Positions 5,794 to 15,372 of a DNA stretch of 64,000 nucleotides are shown piece after piece. How positions within the stretch are numbered: the first letter of the stretch is position 1; each line of letters begins with the position of its first letter. The notes under the pieces are model-generated. The model did not search any database. It was not told the DNA's origin and saw only the letters and a list, made by a program, of their open reading frames with translations. The translations under genes were made by a program, and so were the position numbers. The stretch spans positions 20,660 to 84,659 of the forward strand of contig CAZBLT010000007.1 of NCBI GenBank assembly GCA_964492745.1, read 5' to 3'. Source of the DNA: an uncultured Anaerolineaceae bacterium. GTDB taxonomy: Bacteria; Chloroflexota; Anaerolineae; Anaerolineales; E44-bin32.

Positions 5794-5947
5794 ACGCGAT
5801 TGCCTGGCGAGAGCCCCAGCCCTTGTCTTGGAAGGCTGCTTGCTATGGCGAGCCTGCGCGGTCTAGAATCGGCCCTTAGGGCATCTTGCCGCAATCATCT
5901 TCCACGCGTGTTTTGCGGGCCTGCCCCTTGTGCTATACTGCGCGACG

Positions 5948-6196
5948 ATGCATGCAGACCGAAGGACTACCGAGCGCTTGGCATCATGGCTTCGCGATTC
6001 GGGCCTAGGGGCCCTTTCTGCGGCCTTGCTTAGGGGCTTCCGGCCCTTGTCTGTGGCGGGGGCGCAGGCGCTTTATTTGCTCACGCCGCTGCTCGGACAG
6101 GGGGAAGGTGCTTGGGAGGCCTTCGCGAGGATGCTAGAGGACCCCGAGCAAGTCGATGACTTGATTGATTTGCTGGAGGAGGAACGCGGCCGGTGA
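5948..6196 (+). CDS. Small hypothetical protein, first gene of the GlmL-like operon
   Basis: TGcTATACT extended -10 lies 8 nt before ATG 5948; stop overlaps the next start (GTGA). Confidence 0.7.
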   Translation: MHADRRTTERLASWLRDSGLGALSAALLRGFRPLSVAGAQALYLLTPLLGQGEGAWEAFARMLEDPEQVDDLIDLLEEERGR

Positions 6197-6942
6197 TGGG
6201 CTTGGATTTGCTGGGTTTGGCGGTTCTGGGGCTGATGATCATCCTGCTGATGATCTATTTGGCCATCGGGAAACGTCAGGCCCCGATTTTCCGTGAGATC
6301 CCGGCCTTCGAGGCTCTGAAAGGCGCCATCGAGCGGGCCGTGGAGGCCGGCGAACGGGTGCATTTCTCGCTCGGGACAGGCTCTGTCATCGGCACGGATG
6401 TGGCCCCGGCGCTGGCAGGCCTGGCGACCCTGGCCGAGATTGCACGGGTCACCTCCTTGAGCGATCGGCCGGCGGTGGTCACGACAGGCGACGGGGCCAT
6501 GGCTATCCTCGCCCAAGATACGTTGAGATCGGCCTACACACAGGCTGGGGCGCTGGACCGCTATCGCCCCAGCGCGGCGCGCATGCTGGGCCCCACGCCC
6601 TTCAGCTATGTCGCCAGCCTCCCTTCGCTGCTATCCAATGAGGATGCTTCCGTGCACATCCTGATGGGCGCATTCGGCGCCGAAGGTGCCTTGGCGGCCG
6701 ATTTCGGCGAACGGCGAAATTGCTTCGTCATGGCTGGCACGGATGATGTCCAATCGCAGGCATTGCTGTATGCCACGGCGGCGCATCCACTCATCGGCGA
6801 GGAAGTCTTTGTGGGGGGCGCCTATTTGCGTAGGGACAAGGCTCATCTGGCCAGTTTGCGCGTGCAGGATGCCATGCGTTTCATCCTGATCTTGGGCATC
6901 CTTATGGGAGCCGTGCTGGGATTGCTGGGGGTGGATCTGTGA
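6193..6942 (+). CDS. Membrane protein with DUF6754-like domain
   Basis: TM helix, then FREIPAFEALKGAIERAVEAGERVHFSLGTG...LIGEEVFVGGAYL...SLRVQD, then C-terminal TM helix. Recalled as the DUF6754 pattern. Confidence 0.7.
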   Translation: MMGLDLLGLAVLGLMIILLMIYLAIGKRQAPIFREIPAFEALKGAIERAVEAGERVHFSLGTGSVIGTDVAPALAGLATLAEIARVTSLSDRPAVVTTGDGAMAILAQDTLRSAYTQAGALDRYRPSAARMLGPTPFSYVASLPSLLSNEDASVHILMGAFGAEGALAADFGERRNCFVMAGTDDVQSQALLYATAAHPLIGEEVFVGGAYLRRDKAHLASLRVQDAMRFILILGILMGAVLGLLGVDL

Positions 6943-7604
6943 GGCTGGGCTCCTATCTGCTATGGGCGGCGGTCGCAACCGCGACGGGGATCCTGGTTCT
7001 CCTGGGTTACTTCGTCCAGCTGGACGCGATCCCGCCGGAGGGGTGGCTGCAAAGCATCTTTCAATTGCGCCTGCTCCTAATGCGCTGGGCCGTGCTCCTG
7101 GCGGGTGTGGCGCTGTTCGTGGGTCTCATTCATCTGATGGCGGTTCATTGGAGCAAAGTCAGTGATCAGGCCCGGGGGTGGGGGTACAGCGCCATCTTCC
7201 TGTTGGCCTTCTTGGCCACGCTGATCTTGGGGCTAATCTTCGGGCCGGACAGCGCCGCGGTGCTGCTGTTCTTCAATTACATTCAGATGCCGGTCGAGAC
7301 TACACTTTCGGCACTGCTGGCGATCACGCTTGCCCTGGCGGGGTTTCGCCTTCTCTCCCGCCGCCCCGACCTGATCAGCGCGGTCTTCATAGGCACGGCC
7401 TTCTTGGTCCTGCTGGGCTCTGGGCCGGGCCTCATACCTGGCGGCAGTATGCTTGACAGCTTCTTTGGCGGGCTTCGCAACTGGCTGGCACAGGTATCCG
7501 CAGCCGGCGGTGCCAGGGGGATTCTGCTTGGAGTGGCCTTGGGATCGATCATGACCGGGCTGCGGGTTCTCCTGGCTATGGATAGGCCATATGGGGACGA
7601 GTGA
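6939..7604 (+). CDS. Polytopic hypothetical membrane protein
   Basis: About 6 hydrophobic segments; C-terminal GARGILLGVALG...GLRVLL.DRPY; GTGA overlaps on both sides. Confidence 0.8.
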   Translation: MRLGSYLLWAAVATATGILVLLGYFVQLDAIPPEGWLQSIFQLRLLLMRWAVLLAGVALFVGLIHLMAVHWSKVSDQARGWGYSAIFLLAFLATLILGLIFGPDSAAVLLFFNYIQMPVETTLSALLAITLALAGFRLLSRRPDLISAVFIGTAFLVLLGSGPGLIPGGSMLDSFFGGLRNWLAQVSAAGGARGILLGVALGSIMTGLRVLLAMDRPYGDE

Positions 7605-9712
7605 TGCCTGAAATTCGGTGTCCCATGTGCAGCGCTCCCAACCCGGAGACGGCTGAAGTCTGCGGGGAGTGCGGGGCGCGGCTGAAGCCCCTGGTTGCTG
7701 GTGGCGATCTCGGCATCCCGCCCGAGGAGGCCGGTGCGCCCGGGCCTCCGCCAGGCGCCGAAGACGGCGAAGAGGACTGGCTGGCGCGCATCCGCTCGCA
7801 GGCTCTGACGTCTGGGGGAGAGGAGCCAACGGAGGAGGAGCCTCGGGAAAGCCCCGCGCCAGATTGGCTGGGCCGGTTGCGTGAGGCGGATAGCGGCTAC
7901 GAGGAAGGACCTTCGGAAGGCGAATTGCCCGAATGGATGGATGAATTCATCGCCGCGGGGGAGGAGTCCGAAAGGGTAGCCGCGGAGGGTGAGGCGCTCG
8001 AGCAGGCCGATCAGGTGCCAGAGTGGCTGGCGCGCATCCGGGCCAAGCAAGCCGTGCAGGAGGCGGCGATCCCCGAGGAAGAGGATTGGTTGGAGCGCCT
8101 GCGCCAAGAGGGCGAAGCCGATATTCCAGCCGCAGAGGAGCCTCCACCCGAGATGGAAGCCGCGCCGCCGAGGGAGCCCCTGGAAGGGCCGATGCCTGAG
8201 CATGAGGCGGAGGAGGCCATCCAGGAGGGCCTTGGAGCGGAGGCGGAGCTAGAGGGGCTGCCGGCAGAGAGCCCTTTCTTTGCCGAGGATCTGGATATGC
8301 TCGCCGAGGAGATCCCGCTTCCCGAAGCCCAGGAAGAACCGCTCGAGGCACCATCCTTGGCACCGGAGGCACCATCTTTGGCGCCCGAGGATCTCGAAGG
8401 AGAAGCGTTGCCGCATGTTCCGGCGCTGGTCCTGGAGGATCAGTCCGAGGTCCCTCTGGTTGAGATCGGGGAATCTGACCTGGAGGGAGTGGAGCTGCCG
8501 GATTGGCTGGAAGATCTGCGGGCGGAAATCCCTGTATCGGCCGAGGAGCCCGGGGAAGAAGTCGAGTCGCCTGACCTGGCGCCTGCGACCTTGCCATCCT
8601 GGCTCGAGGCCATGCGCCCCACGGATGCCTTCCGGCCAGAGATCGAGATCGAGCGCGAGGAAGAGCAGCCAGTCGAATCGGCTGGCCCACTCGCGGGTCT
8701 GCGCGGGGTTCTTATGGCGGAGCCGGTCGTGGCCAAGCCGCGGATGGCCACCGCCACTGCGGCTCAGTTGGAGGTCACGGAGCGCCAGTACGCCCAGGCC
8801 GAATTGCTGCAGCGCCTAGTGGAGTACGAGCAGCAGGAAGTGGCCCCGCCTGAAGGCCGAGCGATGCGCGTACCCTTTGCGCGCTGGGCCATCAGTCTGG
8901 TCATGTTAGTGGCCGTGTTGATCCCCTTTTCGTTCGAGCGCATGGGCATACGCGGCTATCCGCTGCCCGCCAGCATCTCACCGGATCTGGCACCGCTGAT
9001 ACAACGAATTGGTGATCAGCCGGCAGATCGGCCGGTCTTGGTGGTCTTCGATTACACACCGGGCTACACCGGCGAATTGAGCGCCGTTGCTGGCGCCGTT
9101 GTGGGGCAGCTTACGCAACGGGGCTATCCCATTGCCACGCTGTCAACCCGGCCCACGGGCCCACCGCTGGCGGAGCGAATGTTCGCCAGCGCCGCGGCAG
9201 CGGGCGCCGAGATCTCGCATCTCGGGTATCTGCCCGGCGGTCCGACTGCGGTTCAACTCTTCTCCATCGCCCCGCGTGACGCCGTGCTTTCCGGGTTCCA
9301 CTTGCCGCAGGAAGGCGAAGAGAAGGATCCCTGGGCGATCGAGGGCCTGCGCCAGGTTCAGCGGCTCTCGGATTTCGGATTGGTGATTGTGATTACGGCC
9401 GGGACCGAAACCGCCCGGACTTGGGCGGAGCAGACTCACCCATGGATCGGCGAGACGCCCCTCATCATGGTGCTGAGCGCCGGGGCCGAGCCGCTGGTGC
9501 GTCCCTACTATGAGTCGGCCGACCCCAGGGTGGATGGCATTCTCACCGGATTGCCCTCGGCTGTGTCCTATCGCCAGTTGAGCGGCCAGCCCCAGCTGGT
9601 GGCTTCGCAGTGGAACACCTTCGGAACGGGCATGCTCGCAGCCCAATTAATCCTGCTCGCGGGCGGAGCCTATGGCTTCATCAGTTGGCTGATACGCAGG
9701 ACGCAAGGCTGA
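7601..9712 (+). CDS. Zinc-ribbon / acidic PxWL-repeat / TM / extracytoplasmic-domain protein
   Basis: CPMC..N......CGECG zinc ribbon, long Glu/Pro-rich region with about 7 (P/E)xW(L/M) motifs, TM helix near residue 430, globular alpha/beta domain, C-terminal TM helix. Confidence 0.8.
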   Translation: MMPEIRCPMCSAPNPETAEVCGECGARLKPLVAGGDLGIPPEEAGAPGPPPGAEDGEEDWLARIRSQALTSGGEEPTEEEPRESPAPDWLGRLREADSGYEEGPSEGELPEWMDEFIAAGEESERVAAEGEALEQADQVPEWLARIRAKQAVQEAAIPEEEDWLERLRQEGEADIPAAEEPPPEMEAAPPREPLEGPMPEHEAEEAIQEGLGAEAELEGLPAESPFFAEDLDMLAEEIPLPEAQEEPLEAPSLAPEAPSLAPEDLEGEALPHVPALVLEDQSEVPLVEIGESDLEGVELPDWLEDLRAEIPVSAEEPGEEVESPDLAPATLPSWLEAMRPTDAFRPEIEIEREEEQPVESAGPLAGLRGVLMAEPVVAKPRMATATAAQLEVTERQYAQAELLQRLVEYEQQEVAPPEGRAMRVPFARWAISLVMLVAVLIPFSFERMGIRGYPLPASISPDLAPLIQRIGDQPADRPVLVVFDYTPGYTGELSAVAGAVVGQLTQRGYPIATLSTRPTGPPLAERMFASAAAAGAEISHLGYLPGGPTAVQLFSIAPRDAVLSGFHLPQEGEEKDPWAIEGLRQVQRLSDFGLVIVITAGTETARTWAEQTHPWIGETPLIMVLSAGAEPLVRPYYESADPRVDGILTGLPSAVSYRQLSGQPQLVASQWNTFGTGMLAAQLILLAGGAYGFISWLIRRTQG
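8345..8386 (+). repeat. 21-bp in-frame tandem duplication (EAPSLAP x2)
   Basis: GAGGCACCATCCTTGGCACCG followed by GAGGCACCATCTTTGGCGCCC. Confidence 0.85.
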
Positions 9713-9731
9713 GAAAGGACAGGGAGCCAAA

Positions 9732-10454
9732 GTGCCCGGGCCCACGCTGGAATTCATCGGCACGATCGTCGCGACCTTGCTGACGATCATGGTTCTGAGC
9801 TATTTAATCGGCGATAACGCCTTCTTCCGTTTGGCAAGCTATCTGTTTGTTGGCGTGGCATCTGGATATGCCGGCGCCATCGCCTGGCACAATGTGATCC
9901 GGCCGGTGCTAGTGGATCCTTTGATCCGTTTTGGGCCGTCCGGCCTGCTCACACGCGAGGGCGTCGGTACGCTGCTGATCCCATGGATCCTATCTCTGCT
10001 GATGCTCCTGAAGCTTTCCCCCAGGACTGCACGATTCGGTGGTCTGCCCGTGGCGCTGGTGGTGGGAGTCGGGGCTGCGGTTGTCGTGGGTGGTGGGATC
10101 ACCGGCACCCTGCTCCCGCAGGCCCTGGCGGCGGGCGAGGCGTTGGGACCGGAGGCCATGATTCCTGCGGTGGGAGAGCCTATCGCTGGCTGGGCAGAGC
10201 GGCTCATCAGTGGCCTGGTGCTCTTCCTGGCGACCTTGAGCACCCTGATGTATTTCCGTTTCGGAGCCCGCCGGGAGGCCACCGGCAGGGTGCATCGATC
10301 CCGATTCACCCAGGGGATGGCCTATATGGGCCGCATATTCATCGCACTCACTTTCGGGGTGATGTACGCCGGTGCCATAACGGCCTCCATTCTAATCCTG
10401 GCCGAAAGAATGCATTTCCTGCGGGATGTGGTGATCGGATGGATGGGCGGATGA
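9732..10454 (+). CDS. Polytopic hypothetical membrane protein
   Basis: About 6 TM helices; LSYLIGDNAFFR...LFVGV and GRIFIALTFG..YAG motifs; within the operon. Confidence 0.8.
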   Translation: MPGPTLEFIGTIVATLLTIMVLSYLIGDNAFFRLASYLFVGVASGYAGAIAWHNVIRPVLVDPLIRFGPSGLLTREGVGTLLIPWILSLLMLLKLSPRTARFGGLPVALVVGVGAAVVVGGGITGTLLPQALAAGEALGPEAMIPAVGEPIAGWAERLISGLVLFLATLSTLMYFRFGARREATGRVHRSRFTQGMAYMGRIFIALTFGVMYAGAITASILILAERMHFLRDVVIGWMGG

Positions 10455-10464
10455 TGGTAACGGC

Positions 10465-12225
10465 ATGAGCGCGATCCTGGAAGCCGAAACCCTCCTGGCG
10501 ATCGATGTGGGCACGGTCAACACCCGCGCCTGTCTTTTCGATGTTGTCGATGGACGCTACCGGCTGATCGCCACGGGCCGAGCACTCACCACCGCGGGTC
10601 CGCCGCTCTTCGATGTCGGCGAGGGGGTGAGGATGGCGCTGGACCAAGTGCAGGCCGTCACCGGACGCCAGATCCTAGATGAATCGGACCTGCCGATCAT
10701 GCCTGTCACCAGTCGCGGGGCGGGCGTGGATCTGCTCGTGAGCACCGCTTCCGCGGGTCCCAAGGTCCGGACTGTATTGGTGGGATTGATGCCCGGCGTT
10801 TCGATGGCCAGCGCCCGTCGCATGGTCACCTCGACCTACCTGGAGTTAGTCGAAGAGGTGAGTTTGCTGGATGGACGCCACGATGACGAGAAGATCGACG
10901 CCATTGCCACTTCCCGACCGGATCTGGTCTTGATCGTGGGCGGGACGGATGGCGGCGCGCGCGAATCGGTCCTCCAGCTCGTGGACCTGGTCGCCGCTGC
11001 GGTGGGATTGATCCCTCGGGCCAAACGCCCCCGCATTATTTACGCCGGCAACAGGAACTTGGGTGCGGCAGTTGCGGAGCGCTTCGGTGAGGGCTTCGAT
11101 GTGGCCCTGGCGCCCAATGCTCGCCCGGGTTTAAGACACGAAAACCTCACTCAGGCACGGCTAGCGATTGGCGAGGCTATCGCCGAAGTGCGCGCCCGGC
11201 AGGTGGGCGGGTTCGAGGAGTTGGACCAGTGGTCCGGCGGATACTCGATGCTCACTGCGGATGCTTATGGGCGTGTGTTCCGCTACCTCAGTCGAATATA
11301 CGACCCCGAGAAGGGGGTGCTCGGCATCGATGTGGGGGCCACCCATACCATGGTCGCAGCGGCCTTTGAGGCCGATCTGCGCCTGAACGTGCAGACCGAT
11401 CTGGGCATCGGAAGCTCGGTGCTCGGGATTCTGCGCCGCAGCAGTCTCGAGAACGTCATGCGCTGGCTCCCCATCGAGATTTCGAAGACCAAGCTCCGCG
11501 ATTTCATCTACAACAAGGCTGCCTATCCCTATACAGTGCCCGCCAGCGCCGAGGAATTGCATCTGGAATTGGCGCTGGCAAGGGAGGTGGTTCATACCGC
11601 CATGCGTTTGGCGCGGCAGGGCTGGCCATCCGGGAAAAATTACGCCTCCGGCGCCCTCCTGCCGCCCATGGAACCGATACTTGCCAGTGGGGCTGTCTTT
11701 GCCCGTGCGCCGCGGCCGGGACTGGCCGCCTTGGCACTCTTGGATGGATTGCAGCCCACGGGCGTGACCACGCTTGTGCTGGATCCGCATGGCCTTTCGC
11801 CAGGGCTAGGCGCCGCCGCGGGGCCGGCCCCACTCTTGACCGTGCATGTGCTCGAATCCGGCAGTTACGTCAGCTTGGGCACGGTGGTTGCACCGGTGGG
11901 ACACGCCAGACCGGGCCGGCGGGTGCTAACGTTGCGTCTGGAACTGGAGCAGGGAGGCGAAGATATCGCCGGTGAAGTACGCATGGGACAACTGGCTGTG
12001 CTGCCCTTGCGGCAGGGGGAGTATGGCCGGCTGACACTGCGCCCCGAGAGGGGCATAGATGTGGGCTTCGGCGGGCCGGGGAAGGCGGGAGCGCTGCGCG
12101 TGGCGGGTGGTGCGGTGGGATTGATCCTCGATGCGCGCGGCCGGCCGCTTCCGCTGGCAAGGGATCCGGGCCTGCGGCGGGAGACCAACGAGAAATGGCT
12201 GTGGGATATCGGAGCGATGGAATGA
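10465..12225 (+). CDS. Glutamate mutase L (GlmL/MutL)-like ASKHA-fold ATPase
   Basis: Two actin/HSP70-type phosphate loops LAIDVGTVNT and LGIDVGATHT; STASAG; PDLVLIVGGTDGG; IYAGN; C-terminal GGAVGLILDARGRPL. Confidence 0.8.
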   Translation: MSAILEAETLLAIDVGTVNTRACLFDVVDGRYRLIATGRALTTAGPPLFDVGEGVRMALDQVQAVTGRQILDESDLPIMPVTSRGAGVDLLVSTASAGPKVRTVLVGLMPGVSMASARRMVTSTYLELVEEVSLLDGRHDDEKIDAIATSRPDLVLIVGGTDGGARESVLQLVDLVAAAVGLIPRAKRPRIIYAGNRNLGAAVAERFGEGFDVALAPNARPGLRHENLTQARLAIGEAIAEVRARQVGGFEELDQWSGGYSMLTADAYGRVFRYLSRIYDPEKGVLGIDVGATHTMVAAAFEADLRLNVQTDLGIGSSVLGILRRSSLENVMRWLPIEISKTKLRDFIYNKAAYPYTVPASAEELHLELALAREVVHTAMRLARQGWPSGKNYASGALLPPMEPILASGAVFARAPRPGLAALALLDGLQPTGVTTLVLDPHGLSPGLGAAAGPAPLLTVHVLESGSYVSLGTVVAPVGHARPGRRVLTLRLELEQGGEDIAGEVRMGQLAVLPLRQGEYGRLTLRPERGIDVGFGGPGKAGALRVAGGAVGLILDARGRPLPLARDPGLRRETNEKWLWDIGAME

Positions 12226-12265
12226 TTTCTGGCACCCTTCTTGCACACCTGGCGGTGTGTGTGCC

Positions 12266-13333
12266 ATGAGCGAATGGTTCTTGCCAGCCATCACGCATGT
12301 GCTGCGGATGACCGTCATTCGCCGGGAGCGCGTGCTCCCCGCACCTGGAGCCATTACCGTTCGGGTGAATGAAAAGGTCCAGGCAGCAGACGTGGTGGGC
12401 GAAGCCGAGGTTCAGGTCCGGCATTATTACCTGGACATCGCGCGCGGCCTGGGGGTGTCGGCCACCCAGGCGGTGAAGCTGATTCGTTGCGGGGAGGGGG
12501 AACGGATCGAAATGGGGGATGTGATCGCAGGACCGGTCGGGGTGGCTAGGCGGAGCGTAAGGGCTCCTGCCGACGGAATGGTGGTGGCCATTCGCAAGGG
12601 CCGTGTGCTGCTTGAAGCGCGAGGAGAGGTGGTTCAAGTGCGGGCCGGATTTCCGGGCGTCGTCATCGCCACAGATGGTTCTCAGGTGGTAACCCTGGAG
12701 GCAACCGGCGCGTTGGTACAAGGCATATGGGGCAATGCCCGCCAGGACTATGGTGTGATGCGCGTAGTGAGCGAAGGCCCTTCCGGGAGCCTGCAAACCG
12801 ATCAATTGGATGTGAACCTGCGGGGCGCCGTGCTGGTTGCAGGGACCTGCGACCACTCCGCCCCGCTGCACCAGGCCACCGAACTTTCGGTGCGTGGTGT
12901 AATTTTGGGTAGCATGAGTTCTGACCTGATTCCCGTAGCCCGCAGGCTTCCATTTCCCATTATGCTCACCGAGGGTTTTGGGCAGCGGCCGATGAATGCC
13001 CCCGCATTCCAGCTCTTCACCAGCAACGTGGGGCGGGAGGTGGCTATCGACGCGGGCACGCCCTGGGCGCAGCCCGGCCAGCGGCCGGAAGCCGTCATCC
13101 CGCTTCCCGCGAGCCGCACGCTCAATATGCCCGAGGAAGTCGTGCCGCTAAAACCCGGTGTTCGTGTAAGGGTGGTGCGGGAGCCACACCTGGGTGAGGT
13201 TGGGGTCGTGAAATCAATTCTGAGAGAGGCGATGCTGTACCCAAGTGGGATACGGGCCCGGACCGTAGAGATTGAGATCGAAGGGCTGGGATCCGCCAGG
13301 GTACCTATGGAGAATGTGGAGATCCTTCAGTGA
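12266..13333 (+). CDS. Conserved hypothetical partner of GlmL-like protein (barrel-sandwich-hybrid repeats, C-terminal KOW-like barrel)
   Basis: RRERVLPAPG.ITVRVNEKV...DVVG, VRAPADGMV, LTEGFG..PM, LKPGVRVRVVREPHLGEVGVV...VPMENVEI. Start at ATG 12266. Confidence 0.75.
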   Translation: MSEWFLPAITHVLRMTVIRRERVLPAPGAITVRVNEKVQAADVVGEAEVQVRHYYLDIARGLGVSATQAVKLIRCGEGERIEMGDVIAGPVGVARRSVRAPADGMVVAIRKGRVLLEARGEVVQVRAGFPGVVIATDGSQVVTLEATGALVQGIWGNARQDYGVMRVVSEGPSGSLQTDQLDVNLRGAVLVAGTCDHSAPLHQATELSVRGVILGSMSSDLIPVARRLPFPIMLTEGFGQRPMNAPAFQLFTSNVGREVAIDAGTPWAQPGQRPEAVIPLPASRTLNMPEEVVPLKPGVRVRVVREPHLGEVGVVKSILREAMLYPSGIRARTVEIEIEGLGSARVPMENVEILQ

Positions 13334-13335
13334 TC

Positions 13336-13985
13336 CGAGCAGGTGATTCGCCGCCAGCCACACAGGCTTGAATCGGCGAATGGCCGCCAGGCTGAGGAGT
13401 AGAAATCATGGCTGAGGAATTCGAAATCGGCGAACCACTACCCGAGGAATCATCGAACCGCACTTTTGTCATCGCCGCGGCTGGACTGGGCGCGCTATTG
13501 GTTCTGAGCATGATCTGCCTTGCGGTCTATGCATTGGTCTTGGCGCCTCGCCAGAGAGCGGCGCAGGCCACTCAGGCGATCGAGATCAACTTGCAGAACA
13601 CGCAGCAAGCGCTGACACAGACGGCGGCGGTCGCGCAGCAAACCCCATCGCGCACGCCCACGCCCACGCGGACGCAAGGGCCCACAGCGACGGCCACTCC
13701 CACCCAGGTGGTGGTCCTGCCAACGAATACCCCCACGCCCTTCCTGACTCTGCCCACACTTTCCCCGGAGACGGCCACCGCCGCCGCCCAGCAGACGCTT
13801 GAGGCTGCGGTGGGGGGTGGAGGCGCGACCCCCTCCGCCACGGCGCTGCCTGCAACCGGTTTCGGCGACGAGGTCAGCGTGCCCTTGATCGCGCTCTTGG
13901 GCGGAGCCCTGGTGGCGGTCATCTTCATCGCCCGAAGCCTGCGCGAGCGAGTGGCCTCGTAACCTCAGCCGCGATCACCTGCTCG
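13336..13985. repeat. Nested long-range inverted repeats bracketing the 13408-13962 CDS
   Basis: CGAGCAGGTGAT (13336-13347) is the reverse complement of ATCACCTGCTCG (13974-13985). GGCTGAGG (13390-13397) is the reverse complement of CCTCAGCC (13963-13970). Confidence 0.8.
13408..13962 (+). CDS. Thr/Pro-rich surface protein with N-terminal TM helix and C-terminal LPXTG-type sorting signal
   Basis: TM helix at about residues 20-46, TPT-rich linker, LPATG followed by a hydrophobic helix and basic tail (ARSLRERVAS). GAGGAG Shine-Dalgarno. Confidence 0.8.
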   Translation: MAEEFEIGEPLPEESSNRTFVIAAAGLGALLVLSMICLAVYALVLAPRQRAAQATQAIEINLQNTQQALTQTAAVAQQTPSRTPTPTRTQGPTATATPTQVVVLPTNTPTPFLTLPTLSPETATAAAQQTLEAAVGGGGATPSATALPATGFGDEVSVPLIALLGGALVAVIFIARSLRERVAS

Positions 13986-14002
13986 TTTCGCGGGTTCCAT
14001 CC

Positions 14003-14031
14003 GGCAGGGTCAGCCTGGGGTTGACCCTGCC
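14003..14031 (+). terminator. Hairpin after the LPXTG gene (probable terminator or processing stem)
   Basis: GGCAGGGTCAGCC / GGTTGACCCTGCC 13-bp stem with one G-U pair. Confidence 0.6.
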
Positions 14032-14049
14032 TTCATATCAGGAGGTTGC

Positions 14050-15372
14050 ATGCCGAAGGTCATAGTCCCCTTTTCAGGATTGAGGCAGGATTTGATCACA
14101 ACCGTAGGGTCCGGCGAATGTGCTTCCATCGTCGGCCTGAGCAATAGCGGGAAATCGATCGTGATGCGCTCGCTGGCCTCACCCCAGGCCAGGAAGCTCT
14201 ATAGCGAACACACTGGCCGAGCGGGCATGCTGGTTTATGTGGATTGCAATCGGGCGGTGTCGATCTCGGCGCAGGCATTCTATGAGGTTGTTCTGCGCTC
14301 GCTACTCGAGGAATTGTCCAAATTGAAAGACCATAGCCTCGTGGAGAAGATCCGCCGCTATCATCAAGTGGTTACCGAGGCCGAAAACGCCTTCGAGGCC
14401 TCCCTCTCCTTCAACCTGGCGCTTTCGGATCTATGCGAAAAGTTGGAACAGGACCTCTGCCTGCTGCTGGACGAGTTTGATGAGATCTACGCCGCATTGG
14501 ATGAGCGCACGCTTCTGAACCTGCGGGCTTTGCGAGATCGGTACGCTGACCAGCTGGTCCTCATCACCGCCACCATCCGCAAGCTTCCCGAAATCCGTAA
14601 CGTCCAGGTGGAAGATGAGTTCGCTGAACTGTTCTCGCGCTTCACCTTCCATATGCCACTCTTGGATGCGGAGGGTTGCAAGGCACTGCTGCAGGAATTG
14701 AAGCTTCCCAGCTTGACGAAGGAGCTGACCGGGGCGGCCATCCGGCTCTCCGGCGGTCATCCAGGCTTGCTGGTGGCCGTGGCGCAGATCTTCGCCAGCA
14801 TGCCGGCGGGGCGGAGGGGGGATCCCCAGGAGTGGGTGCGGACCGAGCCACTCCCCAGGGCCGAATGCCTCAAGCTATGGAATCAGATGACGCCTGAGGA
14901 GCACGCGGCGCTGATCACGCTGGCGCTGGAGCAGGAGGCCGGGATCCCTTCCCAGCAACTGCGCCATCTCCAAGAGCTGGGCGTTGTGCATGAGCGGGAA
15001 CTCTTCTCGCCGATCTTCGCCGAGTTTGTACGCCGCAAGGGGCGGGCGCCCGATACCGAAACGCAGGGCGTGTTCCTCGACGCCGATGCAGGGGATGTGT
15101 GGGTTGATGGCATCCGGGTCCCTGTTCTTACGGATCTCGAATACCGCCTGCTGGAACTGCTCTATGAGCGTCGAGACAAACTTACCGACAAATTTCAGAT
15201 TGTCACGGCCGTGTGGGGTGAGGAATATCTGGGTGAGGTCGATGATGCGCGGGTTGAGAAGCTGATCAGTCGTCTGCGCGCGAAAGTCGAGCCAGACCCT
15301 TCCAATCCTCGCTACATCATCACCCGGCGTGGCCGGGGTTATAAATTGCTCAGTCATCCGAAGGTTGAGTGA
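14050..15372 (+). CDS. P-loop (STAND/AAA-like) ATPase fused to OmpR-type winged-helix DNA-binding domain
   Basis: Walker A GLSNSGKS, Walker B LLLDEFD, SGGHP motif, C-terminal LTDLEYRLL...ISRLRAKVEPDPSNPRYIITRRGRGY. Confidence 0.85.
   Translation: MPKVIVPFSGLRQDLITTVGSGECASIVGLSNSGKSIVMRSLASPQARKLYSEHTGRAGMLVYVDCNRAVSISAQAFYEVVLRSLLEELSKLKDHSLVEKIRRYHQVVTEAENAFEASLSFNLALSDLCEKLEQDLCLLLDEFDEIYAALDERTLLNLRALRDRYADQLVLITATIRKLPEIRNVQVEDEFAELFSRFTFHMPLLDAEGCKALLQELKLPSLTKELTGAAIRLSGGHPGLLVAVAQIFASMPAGRRGDPQEWVRTEPLPRAECLKLWNQMTPEEHAALITLALEQEAGIPSQQLRHLQELGVVHERELFSPIFAEFVRRKGRAPDTETQGVFLDADAGDVWVDGIRVPVLTDLEYRLLELLYERRDKLTDKFQIVTAVWGEEYLGEVDDARVEKLISRLRAKVEPDPSNPRYIITRRGRGYKLLSHPKVE

Follow-up and report, generated by a model that had tools for sequence, protein, structure and literature searches.

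Our literature searches brought up few bacterial mRNAs for which pairing between the two ends of the message has been tested, namely, hbs, icaR, RNAIII and the type I toxin mRNAs. The Bacillus subtilis hbs message (PMC5737220) contains a 14-bp helix between the 5'-UTR and the 3'-UTR that is flanked by a leader hairpin, directly precedes the terminator, limits cleavage by RNase Y in vivo and stabilises the primary transcripts. Local structures are documented as well: in operons that undergo selective RNA processing and stabilisation, such as cip-cel, RNA structures in the intergenic spacers set the abundance of individual cistrons (PMC4423207), and ribosome termination structures located just behind stop codons insulate translation (PMC7518266).

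Here we describe a conserved complementarity between the two flanks of one gene within a 64,000-nt stretch of DNA (hereafter, the window) from an uncultured Anaerolineaceae bacterium. The gene (13408-13962, + strand) is a 555-nt CDS encoding a 184-aa protein with an N-terminal hydrophobic segment, a Pro/Thr-rich stalk, an LPATG motif (13846-60), a hydrophobic tail and a basic end; it matches TIGR01167 with E=0.046, just under the cut-off, and its product is likely a sortase substrate, a probable wall-anchored subunit. Two sortase matches were detected in this genome, one with an internal stop; the second match (G000:C78:3209-3544, - strand) contains a single in-frame TGA. The gene is the last one in an uncharacterised envelope operon that is tightly packed upstream of it and includes DUF6754 and GlmL-like genes. 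As laid out in the window (5930-13962), the packed operon consists of DUF6754, a zinc-ribbon membrane protein, the GlmL-like protein, orphan membrane proteins and the LPXTG-like protein. The adjoining upstream gene (12266..13333, + strand; stop codon at 13331-33) encodes 355 aa and matched no family above the cut-off, and downstream lies a gene for an AAA-like ATPase/winged-helix regulator (14050..15372, + strand). The LPXTG-like gene is flanked by spacers of 74 nt on the 5' side and 87 nt on the 3' side, and its Shine-Dalgarno (SD) sequence, read from the sequence as GAGGAG (13394-13399, + strand), has a core that is unchanged in all 25 loci of the genus. Protein matches were found in 56 of 61 relatives and in 91 of 98 genomes of the family, and the same upstream gene adjoins in 108 of 113 loci, and of the five exceptions four lie at contig ends; conservation and synteny of the LPXTG-like gene extend across the order. 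A crude scan of the sequence found no consensus promoter in 12900-14200, the two Rfam matches for the region are both far under the gathering scores, and our literature search found no paper on this gene or locus. The RNA biology of this host group seems to be little studied.

The paired elements form a nested arrangement. The 5' arm of the outer helix (13336..13347, + strand; conserved core 13336-13344) begins 3 nt past the upstream stop codon and is a perfect 12-bp match to the 3' arm (13974..13985, + strand). Between the arms of the outer helix and the gene lie, on the 5' side, a local leader hairpin (13346..13381, + strand; 7-bp stem 13347-53/13374-80), which is variable in sequence and missing in 2 of the 25 genus loci, and the 5' arm of an inner helix (13390..13397, + strand), which in this lineage overlaps the GAGG of the SD. 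This arm is a perfect 8-bp match to 13963..13970 (+ strand), which starts at the first base past the gene's stop codon. The outer match, the leader stem and the CDS are all located where the initial annotation had placed them. That annotation had also read the inner match as overlapping the SD; the match exists, but it takes in just GAGG, four of the six SD bases, and a second copy of the 8-mer, which spans the start codon (13410..13417, + strand), had been overlooked. Folding, one of the checks that the annotation had suggested, predicts the outer helix strongly, with an ensemble pair probability of 0.94-0.96 across the first 10 pairs, but places the inner pairing mostly over the AUG: for 13963-70, the second copy is the predicted preferred partner (0.73, compared to 0.21 at the SD), and the minimum free energy fold makes the same choice.

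The separate 13-bp hairpin that had been noted behind the paired arms is present as well (14003..14031, + strand; stem 14003-15/14019-31), with one G·U pair, and the downstream gene starts 19 nt past it. The hairpin is conserved in much of the family. It has no U-tract here, and no U-tract terminator was found in the region; across loci, the 8-nt tail of the hairpin contains at least five T in 17 of 54 loci with the regulator gene close behind compared to 21 of 39 otherwise. Given these counts, the hairpin is likely to be a leaky terminator or a 3'-protecting stem in this genome. A genome-wide repeat was considered and rejected, there being one clear copy in the genome. The sequence of the stem hardly varies among many genera of the family, which is more conservation than pairing calls for, and it may be a protein-binding site.

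How often such complementarity arises within one genome was gauged with the 1,054 genes that have both flanks of at least 30 nt, as delineated by our own simple gene caller. The nested score of 12 + 8 ranks first among the 1,054 and is equalled by none of the 31,597 permuted flank pairs, which bears out the original assertion that two nested matches of this size are unlikely by chance. A lone match of at least 12 bp, found in 5 of the 31,597 permuted pairs and in 3 of the 1,054 real genes, is weaker evidence than the nested pair. By co-folding energy (-17.1 kcal/mol), the locus ranks 17th of 1,054, and 10 of 1,054 permuted pairs reach -17. Plain duplex energy gave p=0.06 against shuffles at this locus but is an insensitive test in GC-rich DNA, so the co-folding and swap ranks (see below) were used. 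The evidence from a single genome is therefore suggestive, and conservation in relatives decides.

We rejected the notion that many genes of this genome have closed flanks: the other two genes with matches of at least 12 bp are an IS-like gene and a YbaK-like gene without conservation. The former is a 417-aa transposase-like ORF (G000:C14:38702-39952, - strand; judged by eye), likely an insertion sequence, with a 15-bp perfect inverted repeat inside a longer imperfect one in its flanks. The 13-bp flank match of the YbaK-like gene (G000:C15:32850-33332; L115), used here as a negative control, is disrupted in the nearest relative and was not found in 18 further loci. As for the outer 12-mer itself, it has only two other occurrences in the genome, and nowhere else in the genome were the outer arms found as a repeated pair. 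Separately, the 3' flank of a small gene that resembles spoVS (G000:C3:31822-32082, + strand) is predicted to pair over the RBS region, with a co-folding energy of -20.9 kcal/mol, the 5th of 1,054.

In the relatives, we scored the own 5'/3' flank pair of each locus against the flanks of other genera, a rank in the top 5% both ways counting as a pass. This swap test covered 105 of 113 loci, eight being left out of the matrix as truncated, interrupted by N gaps or lacking a start call; L056 was dropped because it is not an ortholog. The test was passed by 15 of 25 loci of the genus, 4 of 59 loci from the rest of the family and 0 of 21 order-level loci; with failures in this many loci, the gene does not need the pairing. 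Within the genus, the outer helix is present in four deep lineages (A1, A2, D and E, as separated on a tree built with a quick method), which comprise 17 of the 25 loci; lineages B and C are without it, and the eight genus loci outside the four lineages fail the swap test. Synonymous sites are saturated among the four lineages, yet the outer arms are conserved: with one representative from each, 45 of 54 pairwise positions are identical in the 5' arm and 48 of 54 in the 3' arm, compared to 183 of 591 at four-fold sites and 58 of 219 and 32 of 91 in the neighbouring spacer. Moreover, RNAalifold run on the 17 loci finds a 9-bp long-range helix unaided, with all 15 ungapped rows paired at 8 columns. 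The core of the outer arm starts 2-5 nt past the upstream stop codon in 17 of 17 loci, and the distance from the outer helix to the AUG is 55-66 nt, except for 27 nt in the two loci with a deletion, L017 and L018. These two have lost 36 nt of the leader, including the hairpin, and retain both helices; the deletion is identical in the two and lies between two GAGCAGG copies, although the quick tree does not place these loci as sisters. A second copy of the 5' arm, which could serve as an alternative partner, occurs in lineage E.

Alignment of the orthologous loci in search of compensatory changes, another of the checks suggested initially, yielded a mixed outcome. In the 17-locus set, which was picked after the pairing had been seen, was scored on the structure of this locus including the 3' hairpin and consists of kin that are not independent, 90.5% of the outer helix cells are paired, and there are 10 cells with two-sided changes compared to 4.9 in shuffles (reached in 1 of 500). 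Across all 25 genus loci, 75.9% of the outer helix is paired and two-sided changes are in excess when counted by cells (38 compared to 22.3 in shuffles; 0 of 500) but not when counted by pairs (14 compared to 12.1; 112 of 500). By eye, about three independent compensatory changes and three G·U changes can be recognized in the outer helix, along with several breaks at its inner end; for instance, lineage D has a G-C to A-U change, L013 and L015 have a C-G to U·G change, and L018 keeps 10 bp with one G·U and an altered end pair. The 15 loci that came out of a metagenome scan were mostly near-duplicates of the sampled genomes, and none of them showed a further compensatory change in the outer helix. 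Covariation is present, though it comes from few events.

When the whole cistron is folded, 14-22 flank-to-flank pairs are expected in all 10 loci taken from the paired lineages, compared to 0-2.4 in all five order-level loci; lineage B spans 0.3-16, and there the same leader interval is closed by a local stem in the predicted fold (fold z -1.4 to -2.5). Taken with the unaided detection of the helix and with arms far better conserved than neutral sites, the closed-loop pairing that the initial annotation had proposed is supported, and we consider it very probable that the flank pairing is real and selected. Since the flanks are complementary in four deep branches of the genus, the message of the LPXTG-like gene is likely to fold end to end.

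What the pairing is for is a more tentative matter. Among the roles put forward initially, namely, translational gating, selective stabilisation, excision of the cistron and the terminal repeats of a mobilised cassette, selective stabilisation fits best. Our leading explanation, which we hold with somewhat less than even confidence, is that the selected pairing forms an mRNA clamp similar to that of hbs, which would shield the leader from RNase Y and RNase J. Genes for RNases Y, J and III are present in this genome, whereas a match to RNase E/G was not found in it (91% completeness). The clamp would form once the cistron had been fully transcribed; the outer helix, the leader hairpin and the inner helix would between them leave little of the 74-nt leader single-stranded, starting 3 nt past the upstream stop codon and reaching the border of the SD. 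The first 23 nt past the gene's stop codon would be taken up by the 3' arms, with the hairpin capping the 3' end, so that the last cistron would outlive the remaining operon message, and its longer life would raise or buffer the output of the probable wall-anchored subunit. Ribosomes terminating at either stop codon would open the clamp briefly, and initiation would be damped mildly as a by-product. Leader shielding and stabilisation are favoured because the anatomy of the locus matches that of the hbs interaction. We would rank this explanation above translational gating, followed by RNase III cutting and a relic or cassette, and then by DNA sites or anti-termination.

Translational gating, the strongest rival, is still rather unlikely in our assessment. 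Under this scenario, which resembles icaR and hok, the outer clamp lets the short inner helix cover the 30S footprint once an mRNA is finished and free of ribosomes, and ribosomes that terminate upstream melt the outer arm, which couples translation of the gene to that of the intact operon; the position of the outer arm core directly behind the upstream stop codon in all 17 loci agrees with such coupling. The opening energies are predictions made in silico for 28 hand-picked loci, among which those from sister genera were chosen because they pair, and they give a divided answer. The cost of opening the -20..+12 region is higher with the 3' spacer in 9 of the 10 loci analysed from lineages A, D and E, by a median of about 2.3 kcal/mol (L016 is lower), compared to about +0.2 in 10 tested loci without strong pairing, and in this genome the 3' spacer adds 3.2 kcal/mol. 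By contrast, the predicted cost of opening the SD alone is not raised in this genome, amounting to 1.7 kcal/mol with the 3' spacer and 3.8 without it. Furthermore, the SD core lies outside the inner helix in most loci of the genus. Of the 11 lineage-E loci, 10 have a best inner stem that stops between -13 and -15, where AGGAG begins (core at -13) or short of it; in lineage C the stem stops at -14 in 2 of 3 loci, and in lineage A it enters the SD core. In the 17 aligned loci, the pairs with the SD A and the SD G are each held in 6, a count that is partly an effect of alignment register. The initial idea that the message could hide its own RBS is therefore only partly supported, and hiding of the RBS does not appear to be the conserved core of the pairing. 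Gating is further disfavoured by timing: transcription of the 3' arm lags that of the RBS by about 600 nt, which allows ribosomes to load beforehand.

Predicted pairing on the SD itself occurs outside the genus. The 3' spacer pairs with the SD region (p<=0.05, G000 background) in 4 of 4 loci of genus g8, 1 of 2 of g7, 1 of 1 of g41, 2 of 3 of g35 and 2 of 4 of g4, and also in the metagenome locus L155; no such spacer was found in the other 14 genera, among them g10 (13 loci) and g46 (6 loci). Seven loci (L031, L068, L070, L071, L028, L077 and L155) have pyrimidine-rich 3' spacers that form 9-13 bp directly on their own SD, and these appear to be better candidates for RBS hiding of the icaR kind than the locus in the window. 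The anti-SD spacers in several sister genera seem to fit a translation role better than stabilisation and count against the explanation that we prefer; however, no more than 16 of the 84 loci of the family passed the test for an anti-SD, and these are mutually related.

The clamp could conceivably act as a ribosome-operated latch within the operon, an idea that we regard as improbable. Because both arms lie directly behind stop codons, ribosomes terminating on the upstream gene and on the gene itself would hold the clamp open, and whenever either gene went untranslated, the cistron would close and be silenced or stored. The sister lineages would then arrive at the same outcome through different helices, namely, an outer clamp, a helix at the SD edge or a direct anti-SD. 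If so, the family would be a natural series for latch evolution.

Two explanations appear more doubtful still, and about equally so. The stacked helices could be a substrate for RNase III, by which the untranslated cistron would be excised or destroyed: the enzyme is encoded in this genome, the 23 nt of the 3' strand form one arm with hardly a gap, the helices of L017 and L018 merge into one irregular duplex, and the icaR pairing is an RNase III substrate (PMC3868564). On the other hand, the longest continuous helix is 9-15 bp and in 15 of 17 loci a three-way junction breaks it, which leaves it shorter than the roughly two turns that RNase III usually needs. Alternatively, the match could be a neutral relic or chance, or else the terminal inverted repeats of a mobilised cassette. 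Lone matches of 12-13 bp do arise without conservation, as in the YbaK-like gene, and the pairing is patchy across the family, but neutrality is at odds with arms that are conserved over a saturated synonymous distance. As for the cassette, the order-wide conservation and synteny of the gene speak against mobility; no transposase is adjacent, there is no flanking duplication, and the arms are unrepeated as a pair, so this part of the initial proposal is not supported. Least probable by a little is that the arms act at the DNA level as inverted binding sites of a protein, such as the neighbouring winged-helix regulator, or that the 3' arm anti-terminates the hairpin, and for these the conservation of the core in sequence more than by covariation and the ability of the 3' arm to pair with the 5' strand of the hairpin in the nascent transcript (whole fold -9.5 to -19.9 kcal/mol) are outweighed by the observations that the three one-sided changes in the 9-bp core are all of the G·U-forming kind, that the arms are lacking in lineages B and C although both the regulator gene and the hairpin are retained there, and that the full hairpin forms in 5 of 5 folded loci (-28 to -37 kcal/mol), an anti-terminator switch having been rejected as energetically weak.

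On the features that can be tested, the locus seems to belong to the loose class of bacterial 5'/3'-UTR interactions: as expected of the hbs type, the arms are complementary beyond chance and the pairing appears to be under selection. The hbs message (PMC5737220) and the present locus share a helix of about 12-14 bp that connects a structured leader to the stretch before a 3' hairpin and leaves the SD uncovered, and a host with RNases Y and J, and the locus most likely works like hbs. The hbs message has its own promoters and a single helix, whereas the cistron described here follows an operon gene, with two nested helices around a leader hairpin and an arm right after the upstream stop codon. 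With Staphylococcus aureus icaR (PMC3868564), it shares pairing of a 3' sequence at or near the RBS of the same mRNA, the anti-SD spacers of g8, g7 and g41 being the closest counterparts; in icaR, a long 3' UTR pairs on the SD and feeds RNase III, unlike the spacer of about 40 nt here, where the best-conserved helix is far from the SD. The type I toxin mRNAs hok and aapA (PMC6733600) likewise fold end to end when full-length, but the SD is not stably sequestered here, and identity as a type I toxin-antitoxin system was rejected, the product being a 184-aa conserved operon protein with an LPXTG-like end rather than a small toxic peptide. Identity as an IS or MITE was rejected, too, given the syntenic position, the arms unrepeated as a pair and neighbouring genes without a transposase. 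Finally, the cip-cel structures (PMC4423207) and the ribosome termination structures (PMC7518266) are described as local stem-loops, whereas here the partner strand lies across the CDS. No new kind of mechanism is indicated; rather, the locus adds to the few mRNAs with end-to-end pairing a chromosomal example, conserved and situated at the final gene of an uncharacterised envelope operon, which suggests that the level of the subunit may be set after transcription, and natural variants are available in which the pairing is long-range, local, anti-SD or hairpin-deleted.
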